A stretch of DNA of 64,000 bases, taken from positions 1-64,000 of IMG/VR virus record IMGVR_UViG_3300034375_007061; one strand, given 5' to 3'. This document shows, in pieces, positions 2,499 to 30,037 of the stretch; the stretch's first letter is position 1, and the number at the start of each line of letters is the position of its first letter. The stretch comes from a virus (taxonomy: Duplodnaviria > Caudoviricetes). Under the pieces are notes generated by a model. It saw only the letters and a program-made list of their open reading frames with translations. It searched no databases and was not told the DNA's origin. The position numbers and the translations under genes were made by a program.

Positions 2499-4553
2499 AT
2501 GTTGAAAAAAATTCTCCTGTCACCTCTGTGGAGCGTAGTGGTTTTAGGCGTCTTAGCCTACACGATTTGGTTGTCGCCAAACTTCCTGCAGAGCATCCAG
2601 TTACGGTACTTCGACCAACTGATAATCAGTCAACCAAAAATTGAAAACAATATCTACACGGTAGACATTGACGAAGCAGCAATCGATCAGTATGGACAAT
2701 GGCCGTTTCCTAGAGGCGATTACGCAGCAATCATAGAGGATTTATACAACAGAGGCGCAGGTTTGGTTGTGTGGAATGTGCTTATGAGTGAGCCAGACAG
2801 ATCAGGCGAAGATCAAGAACTTGCCTTGACAATGCAGTCATTTCCAGTTATACTTACTATGTTAGGAGCCGAGGAGAGCAAGAATGAAGCAATCAATCCA
2901 GGTGCTACTATTGTTAATAGTGAGTTTAGGGATAGGATACCTAGTGTTCCGGGAACCATCGCAAATATACCAGATATTGAATACAGCGCCGTTGGTAGTG
3001 GAATCACCAATAGCTGGCCCGAGCTTGACGGAGTCACAAGAAGAATCCCACTAGTTGTTCGTGCTGAAGACACAGACACGCTATATCCAAATGTTACAAT
3101 GGAAGTTTTGCGTGTACTTGCAGGCGATCCTTCGTTCCAAATAAAATTAAATGAGTTTGGTGTAGACAAATTACGCATACCAGCATACGGCTTCCTACAA
3201 ACAAATCCTAGTGGTGAAGTATGGATAGACTGGAGCCAAGGATACAAGTCACACAGCGTAACCAACTTGCCAGATGATTTTGCTGGCGGTATAGTATTTG
3301 TAGGACCTACAGCAGCAGGTGTAACACAGCCAATAGCAACAGCAGCAGGTTCAGTGTTTCCGCATCAAATACAGGCAGTAATGCTTGGAACCGTTTTTAA
3401 TGAATCAAACATAAGCAGACATCCTGACGCAGAACAATGGGCTGAACTAGCAGCGTTTATTGGTGCAGGTATTCTGTTAATCGCACTCGCCCGATGGACA
3501 TATGTAGGTATAGCCTTTTTTATTATGTCAGTAGGCGGCTTTATCGGAGTTAGTATATATGTATTCAATACACAAAACATTCTTATTGATGGCGCTACTA
3601 TCAGTGCTTTCCTCTTGCTGGTGGGTCTCAAACGATACGTGCTTAAATTCATCGACGAGTTCTTGCAAAAGCAAGCCATTAAAAAACAATTCGAAGGATA
3701 CGCCAGCCCAGCAGTTGTACGAATACTACAGGAAAATCCCGCTCTTGTTAAAGATGGGATAAAGAAAGATGTGAGCATTGTATTCTCAGACTTGCGTGGC
3801 TTTACGCCACTAGGTGAATCATTTGGAGATGATGTAAAAGGACTTACAAGAATAATGAATGGCTATATGGATGCCATTACACAACCTGTGCTAGATGCAG
3901 ACGGAATGATTATCAAGTATATAGGTGATGCTAGTATGCACATACACAACGCACCTATAGATGATGAAAGACACGCACACACAGCAGTGCAGTGTGGATT
4001 AGATATGCTTAAAGCAGTGGAGAAGTTCAATGAAGAAATCATTATACCAGAGGGTAGGCCACCTGTTGGTATGGGTGCTGGTATCAATACTGGTCTTGGG
4101 TACATTGGCGAAATGGGCTCAACTAAGCGCCATAGTTATGACGTACTTGGGGATGCGGTAAGCACAGCAGCAAGAGTTGAAAGTAAATGTAAAGAATACG
4201 GATGTCTATTGCTTGTTGGAGAAGCGACATACAAACAAACCAAAGACGACTTCTTCTGGCTCAAAGTAGATGACTTGCAGGTTAAAGGTAAAAGTGTTGG
4301 CTTATCAATATACACCGTGTTAGATGATGTGAAACCAGTTTGGGCTAGTGCGCAGAAGAAACACGAACAAATGCACGAAGACTATCGTGCGCAGCGTTTT
4401 GATGATGCTATAGATAAATGTCGTATGCTACACGATCACTTTGATCACAAGATGCAAGGTTATTACGATATGTGGATCGAACGCTGTGAGTATATGAAAA
4501 CACAAGACTTGCCATCAAACTGGAATGGTGTGTTTATCGCAACAAGTAAATAG
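2499..4553 (+). CDS. CHASE2-domain class III adenylate cyclase
   Basis: N-terminal TM, CHASE2 motifs (DIDE, GQWPFPR, DGVTRRIPL), 3 TMs, cyclase motifs FSDLRGFT, KYIGDA, YDVLGDAVSTAARVE. Confidence 0.9.
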   Translation: MLKKILLSPLWSVVVLGVLAYTIWLSPNFLQSIQLRYFDQLIISQPKIENNIYTVDIDEAAIDQYGQWPFPRGDYAAIIEDLYNRGAGLVVWNVLMSEPDRSGEDQELALTMQSFPVILTMLGAEESKNEAINPGATIVNSEFRDRIPSVPGTIANIPDIEYSAVGSGITNSWPELDGVTRRIPLVVRAEDTDTLYPNVTMEVLRVLAGDPSFQIKLNEFGVDKLRIPAYGFLQTNPSGEVWIDWSQGYKSHSVTNLPDDFAGGIVFVGPTAAGVTQPIATAAGSVFPHQIQAVMLGTVFNESNISRHPDAEQWAELAAFIGAGILLIALARWTYVGIAFFIMSVGGFIGVSIYVFNTQNILIDGATISAFLLLVGLKRYVLKFIDEFLQKQAIKKQFEGYASPAVVRILQENPALVKDGIKKDVSIVFSDLRGFTPLGESFGDDVKGLTRIMNGYMDAITQPVLDADGMIIKYIGDASMHIHNAPIDDERHAHTAVQCGLDMLKAVEKFNEEIIIPEGRPPVGMGAGINTGLGYIGEMGSTKRHSYDVLGDAVSTAARVESKCKEYGCLLLVGEATYKQTKDDFFWLKVDDLQVKGKSVGLSIYTVLDDVKPVWASAQKKHEQMHEDYRAQRFDDAIDKCRMLHDHFDHKMQGYYDMWIERCEYMKTQDLPSNWNGVFIATSK

Positions 4554-14634: not shown

Positions 14635-15354
14635 CTAGGTTTTTACAACTTGTTTTTGGAAAAAATTAAAAAATCCTGTTAGAGTTAATCTAACATTTTC
14701 ACCTGCATCTTTATCTACACGAGTAATACCGTGTACTACATTTTTACCAATTAAAACAAGTCTATTTGGTTTAGGAGACACAAAGGTGCCTAATCCATAA
14801 TCTATTAAGTTTTTTTGTTTTTCTGATTGCTCAAACATTTCTAACGTGCCGACACCTGCGTAAGTATCTATTTGCTTTGTACCAGGCAACTTAGGCATTA
14901 TTTGTTTGTAATGTACGCTACCTTTTGGCAAAACTAATAGTGTGCTATCCCAATTGATTTGCCAGTGCTTGTGCAAGTAATAGGAATATGTTACACCTCC
15001 CATGTCGCTATGCCAAGGATTTTTTGATCCTACAGGATAACCGTGGCAACGCATTGCAATATCTGTATAACCTTTTACAAAGTCTTGAGCTTCTACGCAA
15101 TTGTCGGCAAAGTCACGTATTGCTTCTGCCCATATATCATAGTTATTGTCAAACGGTGCATCTCTTAAAAAACGTTTGCTGGCTTTATAGTTTGGTCCAT
15201 CGGTTATGTGCCAATACTTGTCATCAGTTTGACTTTGTGTCCATTCATCACACTGCACTTGATTGTGCAATCTATCCCAACTATCTTGATCTAAGAAATC
15301 ATCAACTACTAATATTTCGGGTGTTTTCATTACAACATTATACATAACTTTCAC
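14635..15354 (-). CDS. 2OG-Fe(II) oxygenase (prolyl-hydroxylase-like)
   Basis: VVDDFL, WHSD, PKPNRLV, VVHGITRV, RLTLTGF. Confidence 0.8.
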   Translation of the reverse strand: MKVMYNVVMKTPEILVVDDFLDQDSWDRLHNQVQCDEWTQSQTDDKYWHITDGPNYKASKRFLRDAPFDNNYDIWAEAIRDFADNCVEAQDFVKGYTDIAMRCHGYPVGSKNPWHSDMGGVTYSYYLHKHWQINWDSTLLVLPKGSVHYKQIMPKLPGTKQIDTYAGVGTLEMFEQSEKQKNLIDYGLGTFVSPKPNRLVLIGKNVVHGITRVDKDAGENVRLTLTGFFNFFQKQVVKT

Positions 15355-16336
15355 ACGTTCCTTCTCTAGTCAAATCCAGTGTAACACAATGTAATCCTCC
15401 ATCCCAAAAGAACTTGTGTCTAAAGTTAAATGGTACCATTTCTACACTATAGCGTTTTAATTGTGCAGCAATGTCTTTGTCATACCCATTGGTAATAACA
15501 AGTTCAGGTGACACACTTACAACATTCACATCAAATATAGTTTCGTCTACGTGTCCAATCCAACTATCTAACCAAGTTGCTACATTTTTAGCACGTAATG
15601 GTTGCATTTTACTTTGCCAAAATTGTTCTGGGACAGGTTGTTTTGGTACTTGTATGTAGTCCCAATGCTTTAGTTCGTCTGGAATCATTTCAGGCAACCA
15701 ACACATAAGCAGTCCAGGTTTGATCAATGCTATCTTTCCATCTGCGTGTCCGCTTTCGTGTAAACCAATCCATTTAGCATCGATTTTGTTTTGTATCCAT
15801 TCTAAGCCTGCTTGTGTGCCTCTGCCAAATTGTCTAGTCATTGGATATGTGCTGTCGTTGTATGGTGCTGTATACAGCAGCGTATCGCCGCATTTGAGTA
15901 TGTTAGCAGCGTGATACAATGGTGTACCTTCCATAGCACGATATGGTTGATAAAAACTGCCTAGTGTAGGAGTAGGCATAGCACTATAACGTCTATCCAA
16001 GTTGAGTATAATATCATTGTAGTGCTGTCTTTCGTAAAATCTATTTGGATCTCCTCCAATAGTACCTACAACTTGATCACCGTATACAACGTGCATATCA
16101 CGAGGACACACAGCAGGATAACGAAAGTCACCTTTGTACTCGCAACGTGGTCTGTGTACTTTAACACCATAACTTTCAAAAAGTTGTGCCAAATCGTAGA
16201 AGTCTTCTTCTGACTCTTCAAATATTCTTTGTAGACCGTTGCGAAACTCTATATCTTCTATGTGTGCTATATCATTTGGATCATACACACGCCCAACAAT
16301 GATTTCTTTTAGGGGATCCCATTCTGTCCATATCAT
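15338..16336 (-). CDS. Amidinotransferase (AGAT/StrB1 pentein family)
   Basis: EWDPLKEIIVGR, CPRD, HADG, GGLHCVTLDLTR with catalytic Cys. Confidence 0.85.
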   Translation of the reverse strand: MIWTEWDPLKEIIVGRVYDPNDIAHIEDIEFRNGLQRIFEESEEDFYDLAQLFESYGVKVHRPRCEYKGDFRYPAVCPRDMHVVYGDQVVGTIGGDPNRFYERQHYNDIILNLDRRYSAMPTPTLGSFYQPYRAMEGTPLYHAANILKCGDTLLYTAPYNDSTYPMTRQFGRGTQAGLEWIQNKIDAKWIGLHESGHADGKIALIKPGLLMCWLPEMIPDELKHWDYIQVPKQPVPEQFWQSKMQPLRAKNVATWLDSWIGHVDETIFDVNVVSVSPELVITNGYDKDIAAQLKRYSVEMVPFNFRHKFFWDGGLHCVTLDLTREGTCESYV

Positions 16337-16368
16337 AAAATTATTTACAAAAAAGAAACATTCAATGG

Positions 16369-16397
16369 TTGACTTCTGGTAAGTAATATGGTATATT
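16369..16397 (+). promoter_or_regulatory. sigma70-type promoter for tRNA unit 1
   Basis: TTGACT-17 bp-TATATT with extended TG. Confidence 0.65.
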
Positions 16398-16440
16398 GTA
16401 TAAGTAAGCAGTAATGCTTACATGCTGTTTGAAATATTTA

Positions 16441-16530
16441 GGACAGGTGGCTGAGTGGTCGAAAGCGGCACCCTGCTAAGGTGTTGAGGGGGCAACTCCT
16501 CCCAGGGTTCGAATCCCTGTCTGTCCGCCA
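16441..16530 (+). tRNA. tRNA-Ser(GCT)
   Basis: Cloverleaf, loop CT-GCT-AA, long variable arm, TTCGAAT, encoded CCA. Confidence 0.95.
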
Positions 16531-16531
16531 C

Positions 16532-16607
16532 GCTGGTTTAGCTCAGTTGGTAGAGCGCTTCACTTGTAATGAAGATGTCGCGAGTTCGAATCTTGCAACC
16601 AGCACCA
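16532..16607 (+). tRNA. tRNA-Thr(TGT)
   Basis: Cloverleaf, CTTCA-CTTGTAA-TGAAG, CCA end. Confidence 0.95.
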
Positions 16608-16610
16608 TAT

Positions 16611-16695
16611 GCGGATATGGTGGAATTGGTAGACACGCTAGATTTAGGTTCTAGTGCCGCAAGGCGTGGGGGTTCAAGTCCCTCTATCCGCACCA
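16611..16695 (+). tRNA. tRNA-Leu(TAG)
   Basis: CTAGA-TTTAGGT-TCTAG, variable arm, CCA end. Confidence 0.95.
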
Positions 16696-16710
16696 AATTA
16701 AAAAAAGTGG

Positions 16711-16739
16711 TTGACAAACCAAACTAAATAAAGTATAAA
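16711..16739 (+). promoter_or_regulatory. sigma70-type promoter for tRNA unit 2
   Basis: TTGACA-17 bp-TATAAA; the -10 region overlaps TATAAATA, a T4 late-type motif. Confidence 0.75.
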
Positions 16740-16765
16740 TAAGTATAGACAAAAGGAATACTAAC

Positions 16766-16828
16766 ATGATCAAGACTAACACAACATCGATAATAGGTTG
16801 GCCATCACGAAAGTGGGGTATGTCTTGA
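16766..16828 (+). CDS. Putative attenuator leader peptide MIKTNTTSIIGWPSRKWGMS
   Basis: AAGGA RBS about 8 nt upstream; the 3' end overlaps the antiterminator arm; codons match downstream tRNAs. Confidence 0.75.
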   Translation: MIKTNTTSIIGWPSRKWGMS

Positions 16829-16863
16829 CGTGACTTTTTAAAAAGTTATTTGAGATAAGCCCC
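16815..16863 (+). promoter_or_regulatory. Antiterminator hairpin, mutually exclusive with the terminator
   Basis: GGGGUAUGUCUUGA (16815-16828) pairs with UUGAGAUAAGCCCC (16850-16863); inner stem GUGACUUU/AAAGUUAU. Confidence 0.7.
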
Positions 16864-16891
16864 TAGCATTAAGTTGTTAGGGGCTTTTTTT
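16857..16891 (+). terminator. Intrinsic terminator of the attenuator
   Basis: AAGCCCCTAGCA-TTAAGT-TGTTAGGGGCTT ending in a T7 run. Confidence 0.9.
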
Positions 16892-16917
16892 ATTAAAGGA
16901 GTGAAACATAGTTTTTT

Positions 16918-17005
16918 GTCGGTTCGGTGCAGTTGGAGTGGCACACTGGTCTCCAAAACCAGGATTAGAAATAATCAGGGGGTTCGAATCCCTCAACCGA
17001 TGCCA
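16918..17005 (+). tRNA. tRNA-Trp(CCA) with an atypical long variable arm
   Basis: CTGGT-CTCCAAA-ACCAG; extra arm GATTA-GAAA-TAATC; GTCGGTT/AACCGAT acceptor, G-CCA. Confidence 0.85.
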
Positions 17006-17007
17006 AT

Positions 17008-17084
17008 CTTGGTGTGGCCTAGTCTGGTAAGGCGCTTGATTTGGGTTCAAGAGATCGCAGGTTCGAATCCTGCCACCAAGACCA
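17008..17084 (+). tRNA. tRNA-Pro(TGG)
   Basis: CTTGA-TTTGGGT-TCAAG, CCA end. Confidence 0.95.
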
Positions 17085-17088
17085 TTAT

Positions 17089-17161
17089 GCGGATGTTCTC
17101 CTGGGAGAGGACTCAGCCTTCCAAGCTGATGGAGTCGGTTCGAATCCGGTCATCCGCTCCA
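17089..17161 (+). tRNA. tRNA-Gly(TCC)
   Basis: TCAGC-CTTCCAA-GCTGA, U73, CCA end. Confidence 0.9.
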
Positions 17162-17165
17162 ACAA

Positions 17166-17253
17166 GGAGAGTTGGCCGAGCGGTCGAAGGCGCTAGTCTT
17201 GAAAACTAGAGTACGGCAACGTACCGTGGGTTCGAATCCCACACTCTCCGCCA
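17166..17253 (+). tRNA. tRNA-Ser(TGA)
   Basis: CTAGT-CTTGAAA-ACTAG, long variable arm, G73, CCA end. Confidence 0.95.
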
Positions 17254-17257
17254 TAAT

Positions 17258-17334
17258 GCTCCTGTGGTGTAACGGTTAACACTCACCGCTCATAACGGTC
17301 GCGATTGTAGGTTCGAATCCTACCGGGAGCACCA
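17258..17334 (+). tRNA. tRNA(CAT), probably Ile2 (lysidine type) rather than Met
   Basis: CCG-CTCATAA-CGG anticodon arm typical of Ile2; lacks initiator features. Confidence 0.8.
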
Positions 17335-17337
17335 TAT

Positions 17338-17431
17338 AGTCCCATAGTTTAGCGGTAAAACACCCGGCTTATATCCGGCATTGTCTCCAGATTAGAGAGC
17401 GTCCCAGGTTCGAATCCTGGTGGGACTACCA
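17338..17431 (+). tRNA. tRNA-Ile(TAT) with a long extra arm
   Basis: AGTCCCA/TGGGACT acceptor, CCGG-CTTATAT-CCGG, about 24 nt variable region, perfect T arm, A-CCA. Confidence 0.8.
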
Positions 17432-17446
17432 TAACTAAATATCTTT

Positions 17447-17677
17447 ATGTATAGTGTAGAATTTGACCACGATGAAGTTTGTATAACTATTTTAGATGAT
17501 AATGGCAATCATGGCGATTTGATCGTAAATAGTTTTGATGATTTAGTTTACATAAGGCAATACGATCCAGAAACAGATACAGATTATATTATTGAAATAA
17601 GTCCTGAAATGTGGGAGGAATTAATTTCTGCTATACACAGCAAAGAAGGCTTTTTCAAAAGGGTACGCAATGTTTAA
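17447..17677 (+). CDS. Hypothetical protein
   Basis: ORF after a TAAATA motif. Confidence 0.55.
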   Translation: MYSVEFDHDEVCITILDDNGNHGDLIVNSFDDLVYIRQYDPETDTDYIIEISPEMWEELISAIHSKEGFFKRVRNV

Positions 17678-17828
17678 AGCAACAAAAGAAGTGATATGGC
17701 ATCTTACCTGTCAAAAATGCAAAAATTGGTTTACATATGCAACAATGGAAAAAATGTGTATTAATAGATACAACTTTCATTGTCCGCATTGTGGTAATAA
17801 AGGAAACGTAGAACAAGATGATCAATAA
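17670..17828 (+). CDS. Small Zn-ribbon protein (52 aa, not in the ORF track)
   Basis: CQKC...CPHC. Confidence 0.55.
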   Translation: MFKATKEVIWHLTCQKCKNWFTYATMEKMCINRYNFHCPHCGNKGNVEQDDQ

Positions 17829-18297
17829 CGAAGACATATTGGTCTTCGATTTTGATTTTGATAAGAGCACACTGCTTGATTTTTGGAATCAAAATCAAGA
17901 TAATACCGAACCCTACACAGACCGACGTTTTGGTAAGTTTGTAATGAACAACTGGCGTATACTTAAAAATATTGAAATAGAATATGCAAAAAAACTTTGT
18001 GAATATTTTGACATTGAAGCAGATCCAAAGTTTTATGTACTAAAAGCAAACACTCAATTACTTCCCCATATAGATCAAGATACAACATGCAGCATCAACT
18101 TTTTGTTAAGCGACGGTGCTGCTCCAGTGCGGTTTACTGATAGTGAATATTATTATCGCACAGCATTATTAAACACAAGTAGAAAACATTCAGTTGACAA
18201 ATATCCAAAAGACCGTATACTATTTAAGTTAAGTGTAAAGAATGAGGGTTTTGGTATAGTTAAGCAAAAGATAATAAATACTATATCAAGGAGTTAG
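17818..18297 (+). CDS. Putative 2OG-Fe(II) oxygenase/cupin
   Basis: PHID, CSINF, KHSV, RILFKLS. Confidence 0.6.
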   Translation: MINNEDILVFDFDFDKSTLLDFWNQNQDNTEPYTDRRFGKFVMNNWRILKNIEIEYAKKLCEYFDIEADPKFYVLKANTQLLPHIDQDTTCSINFLLSDGAAPVRFTDSEYYYRTALLNTSRKHSVDKYPKDRILFKLSVKNEGFGIVKQKIINTISRS

Positions 18298-20771: not shown

Positions 20772-21971
20772 ATGGATTGCTACTTTTTGTTAGATGAGGT
20801 GCTGAATACTCCTCATGCGCCTTTAACAATTAAAACAAATACTTTTATGCAAGATAAAGCAACAAAGTCTATTGACAATTTGTTGGCACATTTTGATGAT
20901 TTTTCTTACAAAAACTTTTTTAATATTAATAGAGTTGATTTACTAGATAAAGACAAACCAAAATTTATATTTAATTTTATGCACATGCCAAGTGAACACA
21001 CACCTCATGTGACACCATTAGCAAAAAAACTTTTGACAAAAAATAAAAATGTGTACCTTATGATTTTTAGTGTGTTAGAGTATCATTTAGATGTAAAACA
21101 GCTAATCAATGAATGCAAAAAGAATAGTTTACCTTTGCAAAAAATAATTGTAGTGTGTAGCAACATTGAATTGCACGGTAAATCATTTGAAGGAATAAAA
21201 TTTATTTGTATAAATTTTTGGGAAAGTTATAGTAGGTTTCATCATCAAATTTTGCCAGAAATTTCTTATGCAACACCTGAAAATTTTAAAAAGGATATTT
21301 TATTAGCACGTAAAGTTTTCCTAAATTTCAATAGGAATATCAAACCGCACAGGATTTGGTGGTACTATTGTATGATTAGGCAAAAGGTTATAGACAAAGG
21401 TCACGTAAGTTATCATTTGCCAAATTTAAACAATAAGGAATATTATCAAGTCAGTAGAAGCACCAACACTACAAAAAGAATTCCACCTGATTTAGAGCAA
21501 GATTTTTTGTATGCATTGGTTAGAGAAATGCCTCCAAGGACACTAGATCCTATTTTACGAACGAACATAATAAATTATAAGTTATCTAGTAATCCATTTT
21601 TTAGAGATAGTGTTGTAAGTATTATCACTGAAAGTGATGCAAGTGTAAACTTTATCACAGAGAAAACCTATAAATCTATAGTTAACTTACATCCGTTTTT
21701 TATTATAGGTAATCCTGATCAGCATTCTTTATTAAGAGCACGGGGTTATCACACCTTTGAAGAATTATTTCAATTAGAACGTGTTACAAATTATGAAGAA
21801 GGCGTAAGTTTATGTAATTGGATACAAAACACAGAGATTGAAAACCTAAAGCGTACGGTGGCCACACAATACATAGATAAATTAATATACAACCAGCAAC
21901 TATTTTTTGAAAGACAAATTAGTTGGAAAACCATTGAAAAAGAGTTGATCAAAACTGCAAATGAAAAGTAA
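20772..21971 (+). CDS. Putative glycosyltransferase-like protein
   Basis: FNRNIKPHR, IITES..FITEKTYKSI...HPF, a GT10-like C-terminus. Confidence 0.45.
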   Translation: MDCYFLLDEVLNTPHAPLTIKTNTFMQDKATKSIDNLLAHFDDFSYKNFFNINRVDLLDKDKPKFIFNFMHMPSEHTPHVTPLAKKLLTKNKNVYLMIFSVLEYHLDVKQLINECKKNSLPLQKIIVVCSNIELHGKSFEGIKFICINFWESYSRFHHQILPEISYATPENFKKDILLARKVFLNFNRNIKPHRIWWYYCMIRQKVIDKGHVSYHLPNLNNKEYYQVSRSTNTTKRIPPDLEQDFLYALVREMPPRTLDPILRTNIINYKLSSNPFFRDSVVSIITESDASVNFITEKTYKSIVNLHPFFIIGNPDQHSLLRARGYHTFEELFQLERVTNYEEGVSLCNWIQNTEIENLKRTVATQYIDKLIYNQQLFFERQISWKTIEKELIKTANEK

Positions 21972-23172
21972 TTTTCCAAAACACTTTTGCATGGCACCTT
22001 GGACACACATGAGCGTGTGGCAAACAGGCGATGCTTATCCATGCTGCATATACCATTGGGATATGCCAATTGACAACATTAATCGAAGCGGACTTAAAGG
22101 TGCTTGGAATAGTGAAAAAATGCGTGACTTAAGATTACGTATGTTAAGCAATCAACCAAGCGAAGGTTGTGTCAAGTGTATTAACTATGACGAGCAAGGC
22201 ATTATCAGTTATAGACACAAGTTTAATACAGAATACAATCATCATTACAATATTGTAAACACAACACAAGAAGACGGAACCGTCGAGCAAATGAATCTAG
22301 CGTATTTTGATGTGCGATTCAGTAACTTGTGTAATATGAAGTGTCGTAGTTGTGGACCACACTTTAGTAGCAAGTGGGCTGAAGATATAAACGGAAAGCC
22401 AGAAGTGGTTGAAATTAATCATCAAGATATGTGGGAAGAAATAGAAGAAGTGCTTCCTAACATTGAAGAAATATATTTCACAGGTGGGGAAAGTTTGTTT
22501 ATGCCGCAGCATTATAGATTACTAGACATGTTGATAGAGCGTGGACTCAAACCAAAGCTAACATACAACAGCAACGCAACACGCCTCAGTCTTAAAGGCA
22601 AACACATTAAAGATTACTGGCAACATTTTGATCGTATCTTCTATTGTGTTAGTTTAGATCAAATAGGACACAAAGCAGAGTATACACGAGCAGGTCAAAC
22701 CTGGGATACGGTGTTTAATAATCTGTGTTGGATACGTGATAACTTTGAACATAATTATGAAAAAGGTGTAGTAATTCAACCAACACCAACTATCAGTGTT
22801 TTTAATATTTTAGATTTACGTAAGATTGTTAACTATTTGTTCGAACACAATATTCCTACAGAATATGATATTAATTTAAGCAATGTTTTAGTAGGACCTG
22901 ATTTTATGAGTATTACTATTTTACCAGAAAAAATAAAACAATATGCTAAAGAAAATATTGAACTATTAAAAGAAGATATAGATAAAATGGATATGTATCC
23001 TCAACGCAAAGAATTTTTATATACTGGACTAGACAATATCATTAATTTCATGTATAGTAAAGATGATTCACATCGAATTCCAGAGTTTAAAAAATACATG
23101 CAAGACCTTGATATGAAACGTAAAGAAAACTTTGTGAATGTGTTTCCAGAATTAAAGGATTTGTATGTCTAA
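21961..23172 (+). CDS. Radical SAM protein with an N-terminal SPASM/twitch-like domain
   Basis: CMAPW..YPCC..CVKC; CNMKCRSC; FTGGE. Confidence 0.9.
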   Translation: MKSNFPKHFCMAPWTHMSVWQTGDAYPCCIYHWDMPIDNINRSGLKGAWNSEKMRDLRLRMLSNQPSEGCVKCINYDEQGIISYRHKFNTEYNHHYNIVNTTQEDGTVEQMNLAYFDVRFSNLCNMKCRSCGPHFSSKWAEDINGKPEVVEINHQDMWEEIEEVLPNIEEIYFTGGESLFMPQHYRLLDMLIERGLKPKLTYNSNATRLSLKGKHIKDYWQHFDRIFYCVSLDQIGHKAEYTRAGQTWDTVFNNLCWIRDNFEHNYEKGVVIQPTPTISVFNILDLRKIVNYLFEHNIPTEYDINLSNVLVGPDFMSITILPEKIKQYAKENIELLKEDIDKMDMYPQRKEFLYTGLDNIINFMYSKDDSHRIPEFKKYMQDLDMKRKENFVNVFPELKDLYV

Positions 23173-24370
23173 AGATTTAACCAAAAGCAAACATTTTTGT
23201 ATGATGCCATGGGTTCATATGCACATGTGGCCTGCAGGATATACCTATCCTTGTTGTATGAGCGATCCTGCGTATCCAATTGGAAATACACAAGATCAAA
23301 GTTTACAAGATATTTGGAATGGTGAGGAATTACGCAACATAAGAATGAATATGTTGCAAGACAAACCTAGTAAAGAATGCCGTCGGTGCTATGAACTAGA
23401 AGAAAGCGGTATGAGCACACTTAGAACTGGCAGTTTACAAAATTATAAACATCATATGAACAAGGTTTATGAAACAAGCGACGACGGTAGTGCTGGTGAC
23501 GTCAATATGGCGTATATGGATATACGTTTCAGTAATTTGTGTAACTTGAAATGTCGTAGTTGCGGCCCTCAGTTTAGCAGCAGTTGGTTTGAAGATCATA
23601 AACAAACACACGGCGACCCAGGACATCCAAAAATACTCAAAGTGCGTGATGACATGTTAAACTTCATGGACGAACTTGAACCATTACTTAAAAGTGTTGA
23701 ACGTGTGTATTGGGCAGGCGGTGAACCGCTAATTACAGAAGAACATTATCGTATACTTGATTATTGGATTGAAAATAACGTTAGTCCAGCAATGGATTAT
23801 ACAACTAATTTTACACAAATGAAATATAAACGTAAGACTGCGTTTGAATACTGGAATGCATTTGAACGTGTAAGAGTTGCAGCAAGTTTAGATGCTAACC
23901 ATGCAAGAGGTGAATACCTGCGTAAGAATATGGATTGGGAACAAGTTGTACAAAATAGACGAGACATGATAGAACAATGTCCTCATGTTTATTTTGAAAT
24001 AACTCCTACCGTAAGTGTGTATAATGTGTTAAATTTACCCGATTTTCACAAAGAATGGATTGAAGAAGGGTTGCTAGAACCGCAAAATATTAGAATTAAT
24101 ATTTTATTAGATCCAACCTACATGAGATTACAGCTACTTTATCCTTGGATGAAAGATAAAGTTACTAAAAGATACCATAAGCATATTGATTATTTAAAGC
24201 AATTTGAAAATACAAGTTGGGTGATAAAAGATTTTGAAAGTGTACTACAATTTATGGAAACTGACAGATCAGATGAAATTGACACGTTTAAATTTAAAAC
24301 ATTTAAAATAGACAAACTAAGACAAGAAGCAGTATTTGATATATTTCCTGAACTAGGTGATTTTGCATGA
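23165..24370 (+). CDS. Radical SAM protein with an N-terminal SPASM/twitch-like domain
   Basis: CMMPW..YPCC..CRRC; CNLKCRSC; AGGEP. Confidence 0.9.
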   Translation: MSKDLTKSKHFCMMPWVHMHMWPAGYTYPCCMSDPAYPIGNTQDQSLQDIWNGEELRNIRMNMLQDKPSKECRRCYELEESGMSTLRTGSLQNYKHHMNKVYETSDDGSAGDVNMAYMDIRFSNLCNLKCRSCGPQFSSSWFEDHKQTHGDPGHPKILKVRDDMLNFMDELEPLLKSVERVYWAGGEPLITEEHYRILDYWIENNVSPAMDYTTNFTQMKYKRKTAFEYWNAFERVRVAASLDANHARGEYLRKNMDWEQVVQNRRDMIEQCPHVYFEITPTVSVYNVLNLPDFHKEWIEEGLLEPQNIRINILLDPTYMRLQLLYPWMKDKVTKRYHKHIDYLKQFENTSWVIKDFESVLQFMETDRSDEIDTFKFKTFKIDKLRQEAVFDIFPELGDFA

Positions 24371-26538
24371 CACAACAAAAAACATTTCACGATTACAAAG
24401 ATCCGAATAGAATTACACCAGAAAAACCTACTGGAACTCTAGCTGAAGACAAACACGTTGCAACTTTAAAGGTTATAGAAAAATATAGCAAGCCTGTACA
24501 AAAAGGCTTAGAAGATTTAAAAATTGAATATGCAGTTAAAAGAGCTACAAGAGTAGCACTATGTTTATTACCAGAATGGGATCCTAGTTTTCCTCCATAT
24601 AACACAGCAAAACTTGCCAGTGCCGTAAAACGTGCAGGATATGAATGCAGAAGTTACGATATCAATGTAGAAGCATATGATAGATATTCAAAAAACCCTT
24701 GGCCAATTGAATTTAATCCTTGGGATGCATTACGTGACTGGCATTGGTACGAAGAGCCCTACTTTAAAGATATACATGAACATCTTGAACCTATTTTATT
24801 AGAGTATGTAGAAAAACTTGTTGAGTACGACCCTCATGTTGTTGGGTTTAGCTTATATTATTGTAATGAACAACCAACAAAATGGATGGCATATGAACTG
24901 AAAAAAAGATTGCCTAATGTTAAAATTGTTGTAGGTGGCCCTGCCACACATGCTAGTTATTACAAAGGAGAAGAAATTTATGATTATGTTGTAAATGGTG
25001 AAGGCGAACAACCTTTACTAGGTATGTTAGCTAATATGGAACGTGAAACAAAAATAATTTACAACGAACAAGCAAAAAGCAAAATTATTAGACAACCAGA
25101 AAATCAGCGTTATAATCTAAGCACATTACCGTTACCTGATTATAGCGATTTTGATTTTAGCAAATACAAGTTTCCAAATGGTGCATTGTGTGAAATATCA
25201 CGTGGATGTATTGCCAAGTGTACATTTTGTGAAGAAACACACTTTTGGAAATATAGACAACGCAATGCTTTAAGTACATTAAATGAAATTGAACATATGT
25301 ATTATGAGCATGGTACAAATGTATTTTGGTTTATTGACAGCTTGGTTAACGGTAATTTAAACGAGCTACGTGGATTTGTAAAAGGCGTAGCTGAAAAAGG
25401 TTTGGATATCCATTGGACAGGATATTGTCGCTGTGATGGACGTATGGACTTAGAATATTATAAAGATCTAAAAGCAGGTGGATGCGAAGTTCTCAACTAC
25501 GGTATTGAGTCTGGAAGTCAAAAAGTTTTAGATCTTATGGACAAAAAAGTTACCGTTGCAGAAATGGAACAAAACTTTGAAGATGGATATAAAGTTGGTG
25601 TTGATGCAATGACCAACTGGATAGTTGGCTTTCCAAATGAAGGACACAAAGAACTTGAAGATACGTTAACATTTTTATGGAGAGTACGTAATAAAGGTTT
25701 AATAGCAATCAGTCAAGGTACAGGATTCAGCGTTGGTGTTGATACTATTGTAGGACAAAATTTTGACAAATTTAATCTTTCACCATTTTATTATTATGAT
25801 CATTGGATTACCAAAGACTTCAAAATGAGTATTGTACATAAATTAATACGGATGAAATGTTTTAGTATTTTCACTGATTTTATAAAAACTGAAAAAACAT
25901 GTAGTAAACCGACAAGACATAATCTAGCAAAAAAACATTATACAATAGAATTCAATCATCCTGATAGAGAAAATGTTATAGATTATGTTTCCGAAGATTT
26001 TGATTATAATATCATTAAACCTAATATTGGTAATTTTGCTGATAGTTTAGTAAATGAAATATGGCCATTTTTACACATTGTATGGAAAATCAAAGGTGGA
26101 TACAAACTCAATCTAAAATTTAAAAAAGAATGGGAATATGAAGAATGGGGTGAACGTAATGCTGCGCCATTGAATGCAGAATACAAGTTTGAAATAGATG
26201 ATGAAGGAAACTGGAAAGCAGACTTTGGTTGGGATTATAGACAAGACCCATATAACGATTGGAACGACAAATACTGGATAGAAAATGGTTTTCAAAAAGT
26301 AAGCGTTGATCCTTGGAGTCCAATTTGGGCAATAATGGATTTTACTAGAGATAATGGTAATGCAGTTGTTAGAGCTAGAAAACTAGCATGGAAAGGCACT
26401 GACAAAGCAAAACGAGATCCATACGATGCATTTGACAGACACGTATTTAGAGAGCACGAAAGAGAATTTATGAAGACTAGAAATATTGATTTTAGTTTTG
26501 TTTACTTTTGGCAGGGGGAAGGAAAATGGAGTGAGTAA
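24367..26538 (+). CDS. Cobalamin-binding (class B-like) radical SAM protein
   Basis: B12-binding region (VVGFS, VGGP, GEGE), SRGCIAKCTFC, GIESGSQ. Confidence 0.85.
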   Translation: MTQQKTFHDYKDPNRITPEKPTGTLAEDKHVATLKVIEKYSKPVQKGLEDLKIEYAVKRATRVALCLLPEWDPSFPPYNTAKLASAVKRAGYECRSYDINVEAYDRYSKNPWPIEFNPWDALRDWHWYEEPYFKDIHEHLEPILLEYVEKLVEYDPHVVGFSLYYCNEQPTKWMAYELKKRLPNVKIVVGGPATHASYYKGEEIYDYVVNGEGEQPLLGMLANMERETKIIYNEQAKSKIIRQPENQRYNLSTLPLPDYSDFDFSKYKFPNGALCEISRGCIAKCTFCEETHFWKYRQRNALSTLNEIEHMYYEHGTNVFWFIDSLVNGNLNELRGFVKGVAEKGLDIHWTGYCRCDGRMDLEYYKDLKAGGCEVLNYGIESGSQKVLDLMDKKVTVAEMEQNFEDGYKVGVDAMTNWIVGFPNEGHKELEDTLTFLWRVRNKGLIAISQGTGFSVGVDTIVGQNFDKFNLSPFYYYDHWITKDFKMSIVHKLIRMKCFSIFTDFIKTEKTCSKPTRHNLAKKHYTIEFNHPDRENVIDYVSEDFDYNIIKPNIGNFADSLVNEIWPFLHIVWKIKGGYKLNLKFKKEWEYEEWGERNAAPLNAEYKFEIDDEGNWKADFGWDYRQDPYNDWNDKYWIENGFQKVSVDPWSPIWAIMDFTRDNGNAVVRARKLAWKGTDKAKRDPYDAFDRHVFREHEREFMKTRNIDFSFVYFWQGEGKWSE

Positions 26539-27739
26539 TACATATTGTGTATATCCATTTATAAACGTACACACAAACACGGACGGACGCTGTAAACTTT
26601 GTTGTCATGTATATGGCGAAGATTATATACAAGTAGACGGCAAAGATGCTGTTCTTGGTAAAACAGATTGGAACAACATATGGAATAGTCAGTACATGTT
26701 AGATGTACGGGCAAATATGTTAGCAGGTAAGTTAGTTAAAGAATGCGGTCGCTGCTACGAGCACGAAGCAAAAGGTTTACAAAGCAGTAGGCAGTGGGCA
26801 AATGAAAACTATAAAGCACCCATGTTGCATAGCAATCCTACTCACCTGGAACTTAGGCTTGGTAATCACTGCAACTTAAAATGTAATAGTTGTTGGAGTG
26901 TTAGCAGCGACAACATTTACAAAGAACGCAAAAAGATTATGAGCAAAGAACGTTTGCCAACTTGGTTACATGATCAATGGGCTCACGAAATCCGCAGTGT
27001 AGAAGAACACGATTGGCAATGGTACGAAACACAAGAGTTTCGCGACTTTGTAGATGCGGTAGCACCGACACTAGAAAGATTGTATATGACAGGTGGTGAA
27101 CCTACACTAATACAAGCAAATCAATATGTATTAGATAAACTTGTAGAGGCAGGTAATGCAAAATGTCATGTTGCATGGACTACAAATATGACCACATGGC
27201 CAGAAGGATTTTATGATAAACTAGATTTCTTTGATAGTAGTGAGATACAGATGAGCATAGATGGACATGGCGATCATAACATGTATATACGTTATCCTAC
27301 AGATTGGAACAAGGTAGAAGAAAATTTTGCCAAAGCAATGACACTGCCGGAAAAAGTACAATTAAAAATATATTTTGTATACCAAGCGTGGAACGTATTT
27401 GATGTATCGCCACTTGTGAAATGGTTAGAAAGCACACAAACACGTAGAGTAGATTTTGTACCTATATTCTTAGAACATCCAGATCAAATACATAGTTGTG
27501 TTTGGCCAGAAGATATCAGACACAAGACACTTGACGATTTACGTATGATTAATACAAAATTACATAAAGATGCTATCCAAAGAATCATTAACTACACACA
27601 TAATACTAATAAATATTCAATAGAAAATTTAAAAAGAATGCGCCAATTTATAAACATCAACGACAAATACAGGAGATACAAGTTTAACGAAGTATTTCCA
27701 TTTTTAGACTATGTATTGGAAACATCATGCAAGATATAA
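26486..27739 (+). CDS. Radical SAM protein with a twitch-like domain (start probably GTG 26531)
   Basis: CVYPF..KLCC..CGRC; CNLKCNSC; TGGEP. Confidence 0.9.
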   Translation: MILVLFTFGRGKENGVSNTYCVYPFINVHTNTDGRCKLCCHVYGEDYIQVDGKDAVLGKTDWNNIWNSQYMLDVRANMLAGKLVKECGRCYEHEAKGLQSSRQWANENYKAPMLHSNPTHLELRLGNHCNLKCNSCWSVSSDNIYKERKKIMSKERLPTWLHDQWAHEIRSVEEHDWQWYETQEFRDFVDAVAPTLERLYMTGGEPTLIQANQYVLDKLVEAGNAKCHVAWTTNMTTWPEGFYDKLDFFDSSEIQMSIDGHGDHNMYIRYPTDWNKVEENFAKAMTLPEKVQLKIYFVYQAWNVFDVSPLVKWLESTQTRRVDFVPIFLEHPDQIHSCVWPEDIRHKTLDDLRMINTKLHKDAIQRIINYTHNTNKYSIENLKRMRQFININDKYRRYKFNEVFPFLDYVLETSCKI

Positions 27740-28719
27740 GAGCAATTGTTCCAGCTAAAGAAAAATGGGTAAGTCTAGTATGGCAAGTAAACGATTGGTG
27801 TAACTTCCGTTGTACCTATTGCAGTGAATGGAACTGGGCAGGACGCAATAAGAATGATAAAGATATTCATCTAATTGTAAACACTTTAGAACGTATTATG
27901 TTGCACTACAAAGATAAAGGATACAAATATTTTAAATTGTATCTCAGTGGCGGCGAACCTACATACTGGGCTGCACTTATTCCTGTTGTAGAAAAGTTTA
28001 GAGAAATTGCAGAATGGCCGGGTAGTTGTGTAGGTATAAACACAAATATGAGTAGGCCTGTTAGCTGGTGGGAACAACACCATCATTTGTTTGAAGATGT
28101 AGTTGCTAGTTATCACGCTGAATGGAGTAAAGATGACAAATATATGGCATCGTATAAATTTTTGCAAGATAAGAAAAACTACTTGTGTGCAAGAATAATG
28201 ATGCACCATAATTATTTCCAGCAGTGCGTAGACTTTGGTAATAGAATCAAAGAAGAATGCAATAATTATATGATTGAATATGCACCAGTATACGATGAAC
28301 TACGTCCTAGTACAGATCCTTATCATTACGATGAGAAATGGCAAATGGATTTCTTCAAGGAAAATAGCACAGCACAACAACAATTAATACCAATTAAAAA
28401 AGATCCAAACTATGCTTGGGCTAAAACACAATTCATTGACGGTAGTGAAGAACCAATTAATACAAATGGAATCATTACTGAAGGTAAAAACTTTTTTAAA
28501 GGATGGTTGTGTAATATTCATGAAAGTTTACACATACATCCAAATGGAAATATTCAACAAGCAAGCTGCGGTGTCGGTCCAATTGTAGGAAATATTGTGC
28601 AGGGAGAATTTAATGCCACACTAAGTGAAGGTGTGTGGTGTCCTAAATCACACTGCCATTGTGCAGCAGATTTTAATATTAGTAAAGCAAGGCCAGAATA
28701 TGCAGAACAAATTAGATAA
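27727..28719 (+). CDS. Radical SAM protein with a C-terminal Cys cluster
   Basis: CNFRCTYC, SGGEP, CPKSHCHCAAD. Confidence 0.9.
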   Translation: MQDIRAIVPAKEKWVSLVWQVNDWCNFRCTYCSEWNWAGRNKNDKDIHLIVNTLERIMLHYKDKGYKYFKLYLSGGEPTYWAALIPVVEKFREIAEWPGSCVGINTNMSRPVSWWEQHHHLFEDVVASYHAEWSKDDKYMASYKFLQDKKNYLCARIMMHHNYFQQCVDFGNRIKEECNNYMIEYAPVYDELRPSTDPYHYDEKWQMDFFKENSTAQQQLIPIKKDPNYAWAKTQFIDGSEEPINTNGIITEGKNFFKGWLCNIHESLHIHPNGNIQQASCGVGPIVGNIVQGEFNATLSEGVWCPKSHCHCAADFNISKARPEYAEQIR

Positions 28720-30037
28720 ACTACCAGAAAAATATTGTTACTTTGCTATGCAAGGATACAGCACACATCCACATGGAAGAACACGCCCTTGTTGTTTTAG
28801 TAGAATTGAAACTAATGCGTACATGCCAAGTGTTAATATTGGTGCAGTACCATACTGGCAAGAACACAAAAACTGGAATAGTCCTGATATTGCTGATTTT
28901 ATGAATGATCCAAAACTAATGGATATTAGATCACAACTTTTAAAAAATGAAACTCCAGAAGGTTGTAAAAGTTGTTTTGCTTTAGAAGATCAAGGTATAC
29001 GTAGTTTTAGACAAACATGGAATGAAATTTATGAAGATGACATAGATGAATCTCTTTCCAATGTAAGTGAAGACGGATACGTAGATCCAAAAGCAGTTAC
29101 TTATTTAGATATTAGTTTAGGTAATGTGTGCAATCTAAAATGCCGTAGTTGTAATCCATGGGCTAGTCATAGATGGATCGAAGAAGGTCCAACGGTTCCT
29201 CATACCGATTGGGACGAAACTGCATATCTTGTAGGAACTATGAGTAGTAAAAATCCTTGGTTTGTACAAGCATTTGAAGACAACTTCTTTGATGAAGTAT
29301 TACCTAATGTAAGAGTAATTAATTTTATCGGCGGTGAACCATTGGTTGTTGAAGAACACTATGCATGGCTAGAGCATATCATTGATAATGGTTGGGCACA
29401 AAACATAGAGCTACACTACAATACAAATGGTACAACTATTCCAGATAGACTTTTACGTATTTGGGATAAGTTTAGAGGTATTGTATTAAGTCTAAGTATA
29501 GATGCTATTGGAGATTTAGCATACTATGTACGTTTTCCTAGCAAATGGAAAATAGTTCAACGTAACGTAGACAAGTTAGCAGAGTTTAGTAAAACAAGAC
29601 ATGGTGTGGTTGTACATACACATGTAACTCTTAGCTTGTTAAATTTACATCAATTACCAGAAATACTTGGATGGTGTAAAGAACAATACGATAAATGGCA
29701 CTACACATGGGATTGGGGTAATCATGGATATCAAAATTGTTTACCTCATTTTAATATTGTTGAACACCCAAGACATTTGAATATTAGAAACCTACCAGCT
29801 GATAGAAAAAAACTAATGAATCAAATGCTAGAAGAACAATATAATAAATTTAAAATAGCAGGATTACCTGACTGGGAAAATTGGGCTATTGAAAACATTA
29901 TTAACTTAAAAAATGTTTTAAACCAAGAACCAAACGAAGGCGACTGGAAAGTATTTGTAGATAACACCAATGCTAGTGACAAATTTAGGAAGGTTGATAT
30001 AAATAATTACATTGATTGGGTTAAGGAGTATTTTTGA
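28625..30037 (+). CDS. Radical SAM protein with a twitch-like domain (start probably 28700)
   Basis: RPCC..CKSC; CNLKCRSC; IGGEP. Confidence 0.9.
   Translation: MKVCGVLNHTAIVQQILILVKQGQNMQNKLDKLPEKYCYFAMQGYSTHPHGRTRPCCFSRIETNAYMPSVNIGAVPYWQEHKNWNSPDIADFMNDPKLMDIRSQLLKNETPEGCKSCFALEDQGIRSFRQTWNEIYEDDIDESLSNVSEDGYVDPKAVTYLDISLGNVCNLKCRSCNPWASHRWIEEGPTVPHTDWDETAYLVGTMSSKNPWFVQAFEDNFFDEVLPNVRVINFIGGEPLVVEEHYAWLEHIIDNGWAQNIELHYNTNGTTIPDRLLRIWDKFRGIVLSLSIDAIGDLAYYVRFPSKWKIVQRNVDKLAEFSKTRHGVVVHTHVTLSLLNLHQLPEILGWCKEQYDKWHYTWDWGNHGYQNCLPHFNIVEHPRHLNIRNLPADRKKLMNQMLEEQYNKFKIAGLPDWENWAIENIINLKNVLNQEPNEGDWKVFVDNTNASDKFRKVDINNYIDWVKEYF

Follow-up and report, generated by a model that had tools for sequence, protein, structure and literature searches.

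Probable leader-peptide attenuation of tRNA genes headed by tRNA-Trp in a giant phage

What is the role of a short open reading frame (ORF) and an intrinsic terminator placed directly in front of a set of phage tRNA genes? The question is raised by the IMG/VR virus record IMGVR_UViG_3300034375_007061 (Duplodnaviria; Caudoviricetes; 113.7 kb, completeness estimate 32%), of which positions 1 to 64,000 were analysed; this 64,000-nt stretch of one strand is hereafter called the window. DNA near-identical to the window was found in 17 freshwater-metagenome DNA runs. The record has nine tRNA genes in a single array, which is split by a 222-nt spacer (16696-16917) into Ser-GCT, Thr-TGT and Leu-TAG on one side and Trp-CCA, Pro-TGG, Gly-TCC, Ser-TGA, CAT and Ile-TAT on the other. 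The spacer harbors the leader in question. In our view the leader is likely to act as a transcription attenuator of the ribosome-mediated, leader-peptide kind and to gate the phage tRNA operon headed by tRNA-Trp, the tRNAs being probably made only when ribosomes decode the matching codons slowly. The anatomy of the leader, its conservation among relatives, its alternative folds and the association of its codons with the downstream tRNA genes are apparent from the sequences and the modeled folds described below.

The features of the locus are listed in Table 1. An earlier reading of the window, made from the letters alone (the original prediction), had named a promoter, an AAGGA motif, a 20-codon ORF and a terminator in the spacer, and re-reading of the letters found all four in place. 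The promoter is missing from our promoter-scan listing because the scan demands T at the final position of the -10 box. The upstream tRNA sub-array, which the original prediction does not list, is treated as context outside the switch, because it reaches the leader without an intervening terminator and has a promoter-like site of its own. No sigma70-like site was found by a sigma70-type scan in the 26 nt between the terminator and tRNA-Trp (16892-16917), and the same scan found no promoter-like site in the corresponding gap of the variants L019 (0 sites) and L021. Transcription of the six distal tRNAs should therefore require read-through of a strong terminator.

The letters TATAAATA overlap the -10 box and correspond to the T4-type late-promoter consensus. 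They would suit a temporal program, in which transcription stops early at the terminator and a phage antitermination factor acts later, leaving the ORF without a sensing role. Delayed-early genes of phages are frequently reached via read-through, which counts for such a program. However, we identified neither a factor nor a site for it to bind, most variants do not retain TATAAATA (their -10 box reads TATAGT, TATTAT or TATATT), and both the alternative hairpin and the tracking of tRNA genes by leader codons, described below, are left unexplained. We regard temporal gating as very improbable.

Table 1. Features of the leader and of the tRNA array in the window
Feature	Position	Strand	Description
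Upstream tRNA sub-array	16441-16695	+	Ser-GCT, Thr-TGT, Leu-TAG; own promoter-like site at 16369-16397
Sigma70-like promoter	16711-16739	+	TTGACA 16711-16716, 17-nt spacer, TATAAA 16734-16739
TATAAATA overlapping the -10 box	16734-16741	+	letters read directly
Shine-Dalgarno motif	16753-16757	+	AAGGA; ATG (16766) 8 nt downstream
Region 1 (5' strand of helix 1)	16765-16776	+	start codon included; pairs with 16822-16832 in the minimum free energy fold
Leader ORF	16766-16828	+	20 codons and TGA; reads MIKTNTTSIIGWPSRKWGMS
Sensor hairpin	16782-16800	+	codons 6-7 pair with codons 11-12; codons 8-10 (TCG ATA ATA) form the loop
Candidate control codons	16799-16801; 16790-16795; 16805-16807	+	TGG (family-invariant); ATA ATA; TCA
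Local hairpin	16801-16819	+	GCC.UCAC-GAAA-GUGGGGU; joins Pro/Ser codons to GGGG of region 2
Antiterminator hairpin	16815-16863	+	region 2 (16815-16833, with the stop codon) with region 3 (16845-16863)
Intrinsic terminator	16857-16891	+	12-bp stem with 6 G-C and 6-nt loop (16857-16886); T7 run 16885-16891
Putatively gated tRNAs	16918-17431	+	Trp-CCA 16918-17005, Pro-TGG 17008-17084, Gly-TCC 17089-17161
Putatively gated tRNAs, continued		+	Ser-TGA 17166-17253, CAT 17258-17334, Ile-TAT 17338-17431

Folding of the full leader RNA yielded -44.5 kcal/mol with z = -5.4. This minimum free energy (MFE) structure is the terminator state, and comprises helix 1, two small hairpins within the ORF and the terminator. 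The nascent RNA lacking the 3' arm of the terminator folds differently, with a hairpin over 16815-16863 of -22.1 kcal/mol, which is the long alternative hairpin of the original prediction. Upon masking of the middle of the ORF, mimicking a stalled ribosome, this antiterminator forms at the same -22.1 kcal/mol and captures AAGCCCC, 7 nt of the 5' arm of the terminator. Upon masking of the stop region, mimicking a terminating ribosome, the antiterminator is impossible and the terminator alone remains. Folding with and without constraints thus fits the two states anticipated for the leader. When the upstream sequence was shuffled 1000 times, 6 of the shuffled versions reached the energy of the hairpin. 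Judged from the window sequence by itself, these modeled folds make a switch plausible, not compelling.

Relatives of the leader were collected with search patterns that left out the sensor codons. The lead was a variant with TAT in place of GGT, seen in DNA and RNA libraries. A 27-mer from the 3' end of the ORF matched 5 viral and 5 metagenome loci, a 20-mer at the start codon (the 5' pattern) matched 15 viral loci, and the pattern TTGGCC-gap-GGGGTATGTCTTGA matched 59 viral loci. Altogether 64 further loci were obtained, giving 65 sources with the window. Before any counts, L065 was dropped for a leader truncated at the locus end, and L022 and L024 for truncated arrays. The usable set holds 62 rows with 33 distinct ORFs and 34 distinct combinations of leader and array; L028, which has N, and L042, whose T-run is shorter than 5, were left out of the structure sets only. 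Two loci found by an 18-mer of region 2, L037 and L038, were chance matches with neither leader nor tRNAs. An exact 29-mer including GGT and a back-translated TTSIIGWPS pattern gave no match, because both include variable codons. In addition, 15 loci with the neighbouring 332-aa gene (77-93% identity) lack the leader and carry other tRNA arrays, so that the leader goes along with the tRNA-Trp array and not with this flanking gene. Leader-bearing contigs reach 343 kb and are therefore from giant phages. A megablast search of GenBank phages matched the tRNA genes only. The RNA run X19 gave a 651-nt contig in which a variant leader continues beyond the terminator (the library may contain DNA), and in the RNA run X18 the leader was not covered; sequencing runs were used as Logan contigs, from which transcript ends and levels are unreadable.

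The module is conserved. Short ORFs with terminators upstream of tRNA arrays, which the original prediction had proposed to look for in related phages, are present in the family; in all 62 usable rows the leader is followed first by tRNA-Trp(CCA), and every leader contains a TGG codon. The 5' pattern leaves codon 12 free, and in all 15 of its loci this codon is TGG and tRNA-Trp comes first. A promoter of the form TTGAC(A/T/C)-16/17-TAnnnT, matching at least 9 of 12 positions, was found in 35 of 37 distinct upstream stretches, which lie outside all search patterns, and the remaining two carry manA-type RNA in its place. At L030:2718-2928 the manA RNA motif RF01745 (58 bits versus a gathering score of 55.2) lies immediately 5' of the leader.

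The signals for translation are retained as well. Of 36 distinct leaders, 30 have a Shine-Dalgarno motif despite differing surroundings, and all 33 distinct ORFs are 15-20 codons long (those of L053 and L074 counted from an internal ATG). The usual length differences are 3-nt indels which preserve the frame. In 34 leaders the stop codon begins 11 nt past the first G of region 2, and in the other 2 it begins 2 nt ahead of this G. Two lineages have a 2-nt deletion that shifts the stop to 2 nt before GGGG, with the downstream sequence unchanged. Since the GGGGTATGTCTTGA part is retained beyond the frameshifted stop, it is conserved as RNA and not as peptide.

Both predicted hairpins persist across the family. 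The terminator is retained in all 36 leaders (mean -16.4 kcal/mol), and so is the antiterminator (mean -18.6 kcal/mol). The 3' partner of the antiterminator varies in sequence and length, yet is complementary to region 2 throughout, and in 33 of the 36 leaders no more than 5 of 100 shuffled versions of the variable spacer give an equally stable hairpin. The OFF-state structure is 94.5% paired over the 36 distinct leaders and has 5 pairs with double changes; its covariation score was reached by none of 500 shuffles. Compensatory changes were found in the terminator (CG 18 / UA 17) and in the sensor hairpin (CG 25 / UA 9 / UG 2 and AU 30 / UA 4), where the GGT of the window disrupts the loop-closing pair. 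The local hairpin is paired in 100% of cells over 36 leaders, whereas helix 1 is paired in 88% and shows one-sided changes only. Compensatory change in the stems, which the original prediction had proposed to look for, is therefore seen in the terminator and the sensor hairpin but not in the antiterminator, whose 5' arm is invariant, or in helix 1. The predicted core of leader, terminator and antiterminator is supported by the conservation of its ORF, Shine-Dalgarno motif, promoter, terminator and pairing, but codon 11 is largely accounted for by its pairing with codon 7, and the Pro codons belong to a stem.

Such conservation at the RNA level would also be expected of a structured leader that acts independently of translation, with a factor (a protein, a small RNA, or a tRNA in a T-box-like manner) flipping the switch and the ORF as a by-product. 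The four closest variants do not differ at all in 16798-16837, although identity between their tRNA genes is only 64-82%, codons 2 and 7-17 of the peptide are variable, GGGGTATGTCTTGA outlasts the frameshift that ends the ORF ahead of it, codons 11 and 7 covary as RNA, and the Pro codons are a stem strand. However, a by-product would not be expected to keep a Shine-Dalgarno motif and ATG at proper spacing in 30 of 36 leaders amid divergent sequence, common indels in multiples of 3, or a stop codon always within region 2 or 2 nt before it. The loop codons ATA ATA, which are unpaired, and TCA moreover track the downstream tRNA genes. As for a T-box, the TGG lies at a stem junction, not in a specifier-type loop, and the Rfam searches gave neither a T-box row nor any other family at gathering score, the sub-threshold rows being driven by the terminator; no T-box row was returned up to E=1 in 16000-18000 or 16700-16920. 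A translation-independent leader is accordingly unlikely.

The strength of the terminator in every variant, and its presence in the MFE structure of the full RNA, suit another arrangement, in which promoter, micro-ORF and terminator form a stand-alone unit (making a peptide or a stable small RNA) and a constitutive, fixed read-through sets the tRNA level. The tRNA regions of related phages are indeed interspersed with unrelated small ORFs and HNH-like genes, and an RNA-library contig covers a variant leader at a word depth of 152.6, a weak point in its favor as contigs are not transcripts. A constitutively leaky terminator leaves unexplained why the variable spacer has kept its ability to pair with region 2 in 33 of 36 leaders, why the stop codon lies within region 2, why the unit is fused to tRNA-Trp in 62 of 62 rows, and why leader codons follow the tRNA set. 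We consider this arrangement quite unlikely. Each of the three alternatives covers part of the anatomy; none jointly covers the Shine-Dalgarno motif, ATG and frame, the position of the stop codon, and the codon tracking.

The tracking of tRNA genes by leader codons was assessed over the 34 combinations of leader and array. Counts are given below in the order both / leader only / tRNA only / neither, followed by independent pairs (same / opposite); Fisher and permutation p values ignore relatedness. At least two ATA codons in the leader coincide with an Ile-UAU/CAU tRNA (6 / 0 / 0 / 28, p=7e-7, pairs 3 / 0), and TCA or TCG past codon 3 with Ser-UGA (4 / 1 / 1 / 28, p=5e-4, pairs 2.9 / 0). Similar associations were found between a Cys codon and tRNA-Cys (12 / 12 / 0 / 10, p=0.005, pairs 3.3 / 0), two TAT codons and tRNA-Tyr (2 / 1 / 0 / 31, p=0.005, pairs 2 / 0), and a Gly codon in codons 2-11 and Gly-UCC (2 / 0 / 0 / 32, p=0.0018, pairs 2 / 0). 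Overall, for 42 of 49 non-Trp tRNAs the leader in front contains a codon that they read, whereas shuffling of the arrays among leaders gave 30.5 on average (42 was reached in 0 of 20,000 shuffles). With Trp, Pro and Cys excluded, 15 of 22 are matched against 7.0 in shuffles (2 of 20,000). Close pairs of variants illustrate the association. The tRNA-Trp and tRNA-Pro genes of the window are identical to those of L025, but codon 11 is GGT with tRNA-Gly in the window and TGT with tRNA-Cys in L025; L019 and L030 have identical tRNA-Trp, and TCA together with tRNA-Ser-UGA occurs in L019 only.

The codon content of the window leader is unusual in itself. The original prediction had pointed to a run of codons for exactly the five amino acids served by the downstream tRNAs. 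A run of at least 7 codons drawn from Trp, Pro, Gly, Ser and Ile with all five present had a frequency of 0.0001 in 200,000 ORFs simulated with phage codon usage, and among the 595 natural ORFs of 15-30 codons in the genome such a five-residue run was found in the leader ORF only. Runs of at least 7 codons readable by the six tRNAs were found in 12 of these 595. The statistic was chosen post hoc, and its significance is nominal. In addition, the claim of an exact match was too strong as worded, as the Gly codon shows below.

A number of points weigh against the attenuator. We infer translation of the ORF, stalling of the ribosome and regulated read-through from sequence and not from experiment. 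The part of the antiterminator that competes with the terminator is modest: the overlap with the terminator arm is about 5-7 nt (at least 4 bases in each of 36 leaders), and the energy share of this arm (-5.9 kcal/mol) was equalled in 220 of 1000 shuffles. The antiterminator has no double changes because region 2 is invariant, which was partly set by two of the search patterns. With 6 independent pairs at most, none of the sign tests in the codon comparisons attains 0.05. The ATA trait coincides with one deep split, that of the lineages with a long-arm tRNA-Trp, and its association may reflect one event. Codon 11 (TGT/TAT/AAT) covaries with codon 7 (ACA/ATA/ATT) as an RNA pair; this pairing accounts for Cys and Tyr codons where the array lacks the corresponding tRNA, and it weakens both associations. 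The Pro codons, as part of a stem, do not track tRNA-Pro (p=0.53). GGT is unreadable by the anticodon UCC under standard wobble, and none of 17 leaders with GGA or GGG has tRNA-Gly-UCC behind it. For seven of the 49 non-Trp tRNAs the leader lacks a matching codon (2 Gly-UCC, Ser-GCU, Glu, Arg-GCG, Ala and Arg-ACG). Finally, a blastn search of 50,697 GenBank phage records found no leader, and no cultured phage among them carries it. The co-variation of leader codons with array anticodons is supported by ATA, TCA and the global match, with Pro and the GGA/GGG codons as exceptions.

The CAT tRNAs also belong here. Of the six tRNAs in the original prediction, those for Trp, Pro, Gly and Ser and Ile-TAT were confirmed, but the CAT tRNA, named there as Ile2, is labeled Met by ARAGORN. 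The CAT tRNAs may be Ile2 or Met: annotations in phages are mixed between Met and Ile, and in comparisons of the CAT tRNA a second query gave one unannotated match, with no match in E. coli.

Taking both sides together, a ribosome-mediated attenuator still accounts best for the locus, and the best-supported assignment of its codons has TGG as the fixed control codon, with ATA-ATA and TCA as lineage-specific additions in the window. We propose the following cycle. Host RNA polymerase would initiate at the sigma70-like promoter, and a ribosome would load on the 20-codon ORF. In the state without a ribosome, helices 1 and 3 would hold region 2 (GGGGUAUGUCUUGA...), so that the terminator forms and transcription stops at about 16891. 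A ribosome that reaches the TGA at 16826 would cover region 2, again resulting in the terminator. When the ribosome is slow at TGG, ATA-ATA or TCA (with TCG and CCA adjacent), it would open helices 1-3 and leave region 2 free. Upon a pause with TGG or an earlier codon in the A site, the 5' strands of helices 2 and 3 would be covered and region 2 exposed. The freed region 2 would then pair with region 3 and the first 7 nt of the 5' arm of the terminator, leading to read-through into the six tRNAs. Because the tRNAs produced decode the codons that cause the pause, the circuit would constitute a negative feedback on the supply of (charged) tRNA.

Leader-peptide attenuation is a textbook mechanism known for amino-acid operons. 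Similar to E. coli trpL, the phage leader has a promoter-proximal short ORF with a Shine-Dalgarno motif, putative Trp control codon(s) in region 1, three helices predicted to be mutually exclusive (1:2, the 2:3 antiterminator and the 3:4 terminator), a stop codon placed where a terminating ribosome would mask region 2, and a predicted untranslated default that is OFF. Unlike trpL, it is borne by a phage, its targets are tRNA genes and not amino-acid biosynthesis genes, it uses a single invariant TGG plus lineage-specific codons, and it has an extra covarying sensor hairpin inside the ORF. The Rfam family Trp_leader RF00513 scored 17.2 bits against a gathering score of 41, with no homology in sequence or structure. 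Similar to thrL and ilvL, control codons for several amino acids would be combined (Thr and Ile, or Ile, Val and Leu, versus Trp, Ile-ATA and Ser-TCA in the window). Those leaders use runs of repeated codons, whereas the phage leader has between one and three codons for each tRNA and is directed at tRNA genes. Thr_leader RF00506 scored 26.1 bits against 55, with non-standard pairs in the first helix and a score driven by the terminator.

The T-box is likewise a transcription attenuator for genes of the translation machinery, and senses the status of tRNA via an element that resembles a codon. However, it needs no ribosome and relies on direct pairing of codon and anticodon in a specifier loop and on sensing of the acceptor end, and its targets are aminoacyl-tRNA synthetase (aaRS) or amino-acid genes, whereas the phage leader conserves a Shine-Dalgarno motif, an ATG and a reading frame. 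The pheST attenuator of E. coli, with its pheM leader, is a case of leader-peptide control of a gene of the decoding apparatus and not of a biosynthetic enzyme; it differs in that pheST controls a tRNA synthetase and is chromosomal, while the targets here are viral tRNA genes. With the tRNA clusters of T4-like and other large phages the locus shares host-type promoters, sub-clusters, and interspersed small ORFs and homing-endonuclease genes (as seen in relatives), but no published switch of leader ORF and terminator was found there. A full-text literature search, whose coverage excludes most subscription journals, did not turn up any leader-peptide attenuator described for tRNA genes, be it in phages or elsewhere. 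Three traits of the trpL/hisL/thrL/ilvL class are present, namely a short ORF with a Shine-Dalgarno motif behind a promoter, a terminator with no later promoter, and control codons that match the regulated product. For a further trait, an antiterminator that excludes the terminator and has its 5' arm at the end of the ORF, the modeled folds fit, within the limits set by the invariant 5' arm and the short overlap. The regulated genes are six tRNA genes and neither amino-acid biosynthesis nor aaRS genes. The leader would work like this class without homology to it, and its tRNA targets depart from one defining feature of the class.

If the attenuator operates as proposed, tRNA genes would be under feedback from the decoding speed of their own codons, and giant phages would regulate their tRNA supply rather than express it constitutively. 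This would bear on the purpose of phage tRNAs, be it compensation of codon usage, substitution for degraded host tRNAs late in infection, or evasion of defences that cleave tRNA. The leader might further be a monitor of decoding capacity that turns on replacement tRNAs when host tRNAs are depleted or cut, for example by anticodon nucleases, with a codon set that co-evolves with the tRNA cassette, as an inducible and self-limiting circuit for counter-defence or tRNA homeostasis. This extension is doubtful, and the sensing of host-tRNA depletion or of defence nucleases is speculation. The natural variants, in which leader codons shift with the tRNA cassette, provide a ready mutational series. 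In addition, the module of about 180 nt with its sigma70-type promoter is a potential compact sensor of tRNA availability suited to reporter and cell-free systems.

Several tRNAs of the array have unusual shapes. A tRNA-Trp(CCA) with a long extra arm occurs in four leader types, with 88 nt in the window and L025 and 85 nt in L019 (8586-8670) and L030; other leader types have an ordinary tRNA-Trp of 74-76 nt. The tRNA-Trp of the window scores just 41.5 bits with the Rfam tRNA model. The tRNA-Ile(UAU) of the window is 94 nt long and also has a long extra arm, and the UAU tRNA of L025 (92 nt) is 63% identical to it. The neighbouring CAT tRNA may be a second AUA decoder.

Other leader types differ between terminator and tRNA-Trp. 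Several of them, but not the window, have a conserved spacer of about 90 nt there (L019:8486-8590), which adopts a branched fold closed by ACUACACUA/UAGUGUAGU with -27.4 kcal/mol and z = -3.0. One leader type has another 20-codon ORF, containing two TGG codons, in this interval (L021:5860-5922). The same locus has a small gene between its tRNA sub-arrays, with its own terminator upstream (L021:5443-5643), the product of which presumably resembles a cold-shock-domain protein, judging by a sequence motif.

Two oddities were found in the tRNA arrays of the relatives of the flanking gene (L004:3096-3191, L005:3438-3533, L010:1735-1991, L008:3033-3513). One is a tRNA-like stretch ending GGTTCGATTCC...ACCA that is not called by ARAGORN; the other is a set of Cys-rich or HNH-like ORFs, one of them seemingly inside tRNA-like sequence. 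Elsewhere in the window, the segments 14635-16336, 2499-4553 and 20772-30037 contain an amidinotransferase-like gene, an endonuclease V-like gene, a CHASE2-adenylate/guanylate cyclase and a radical SAM block.

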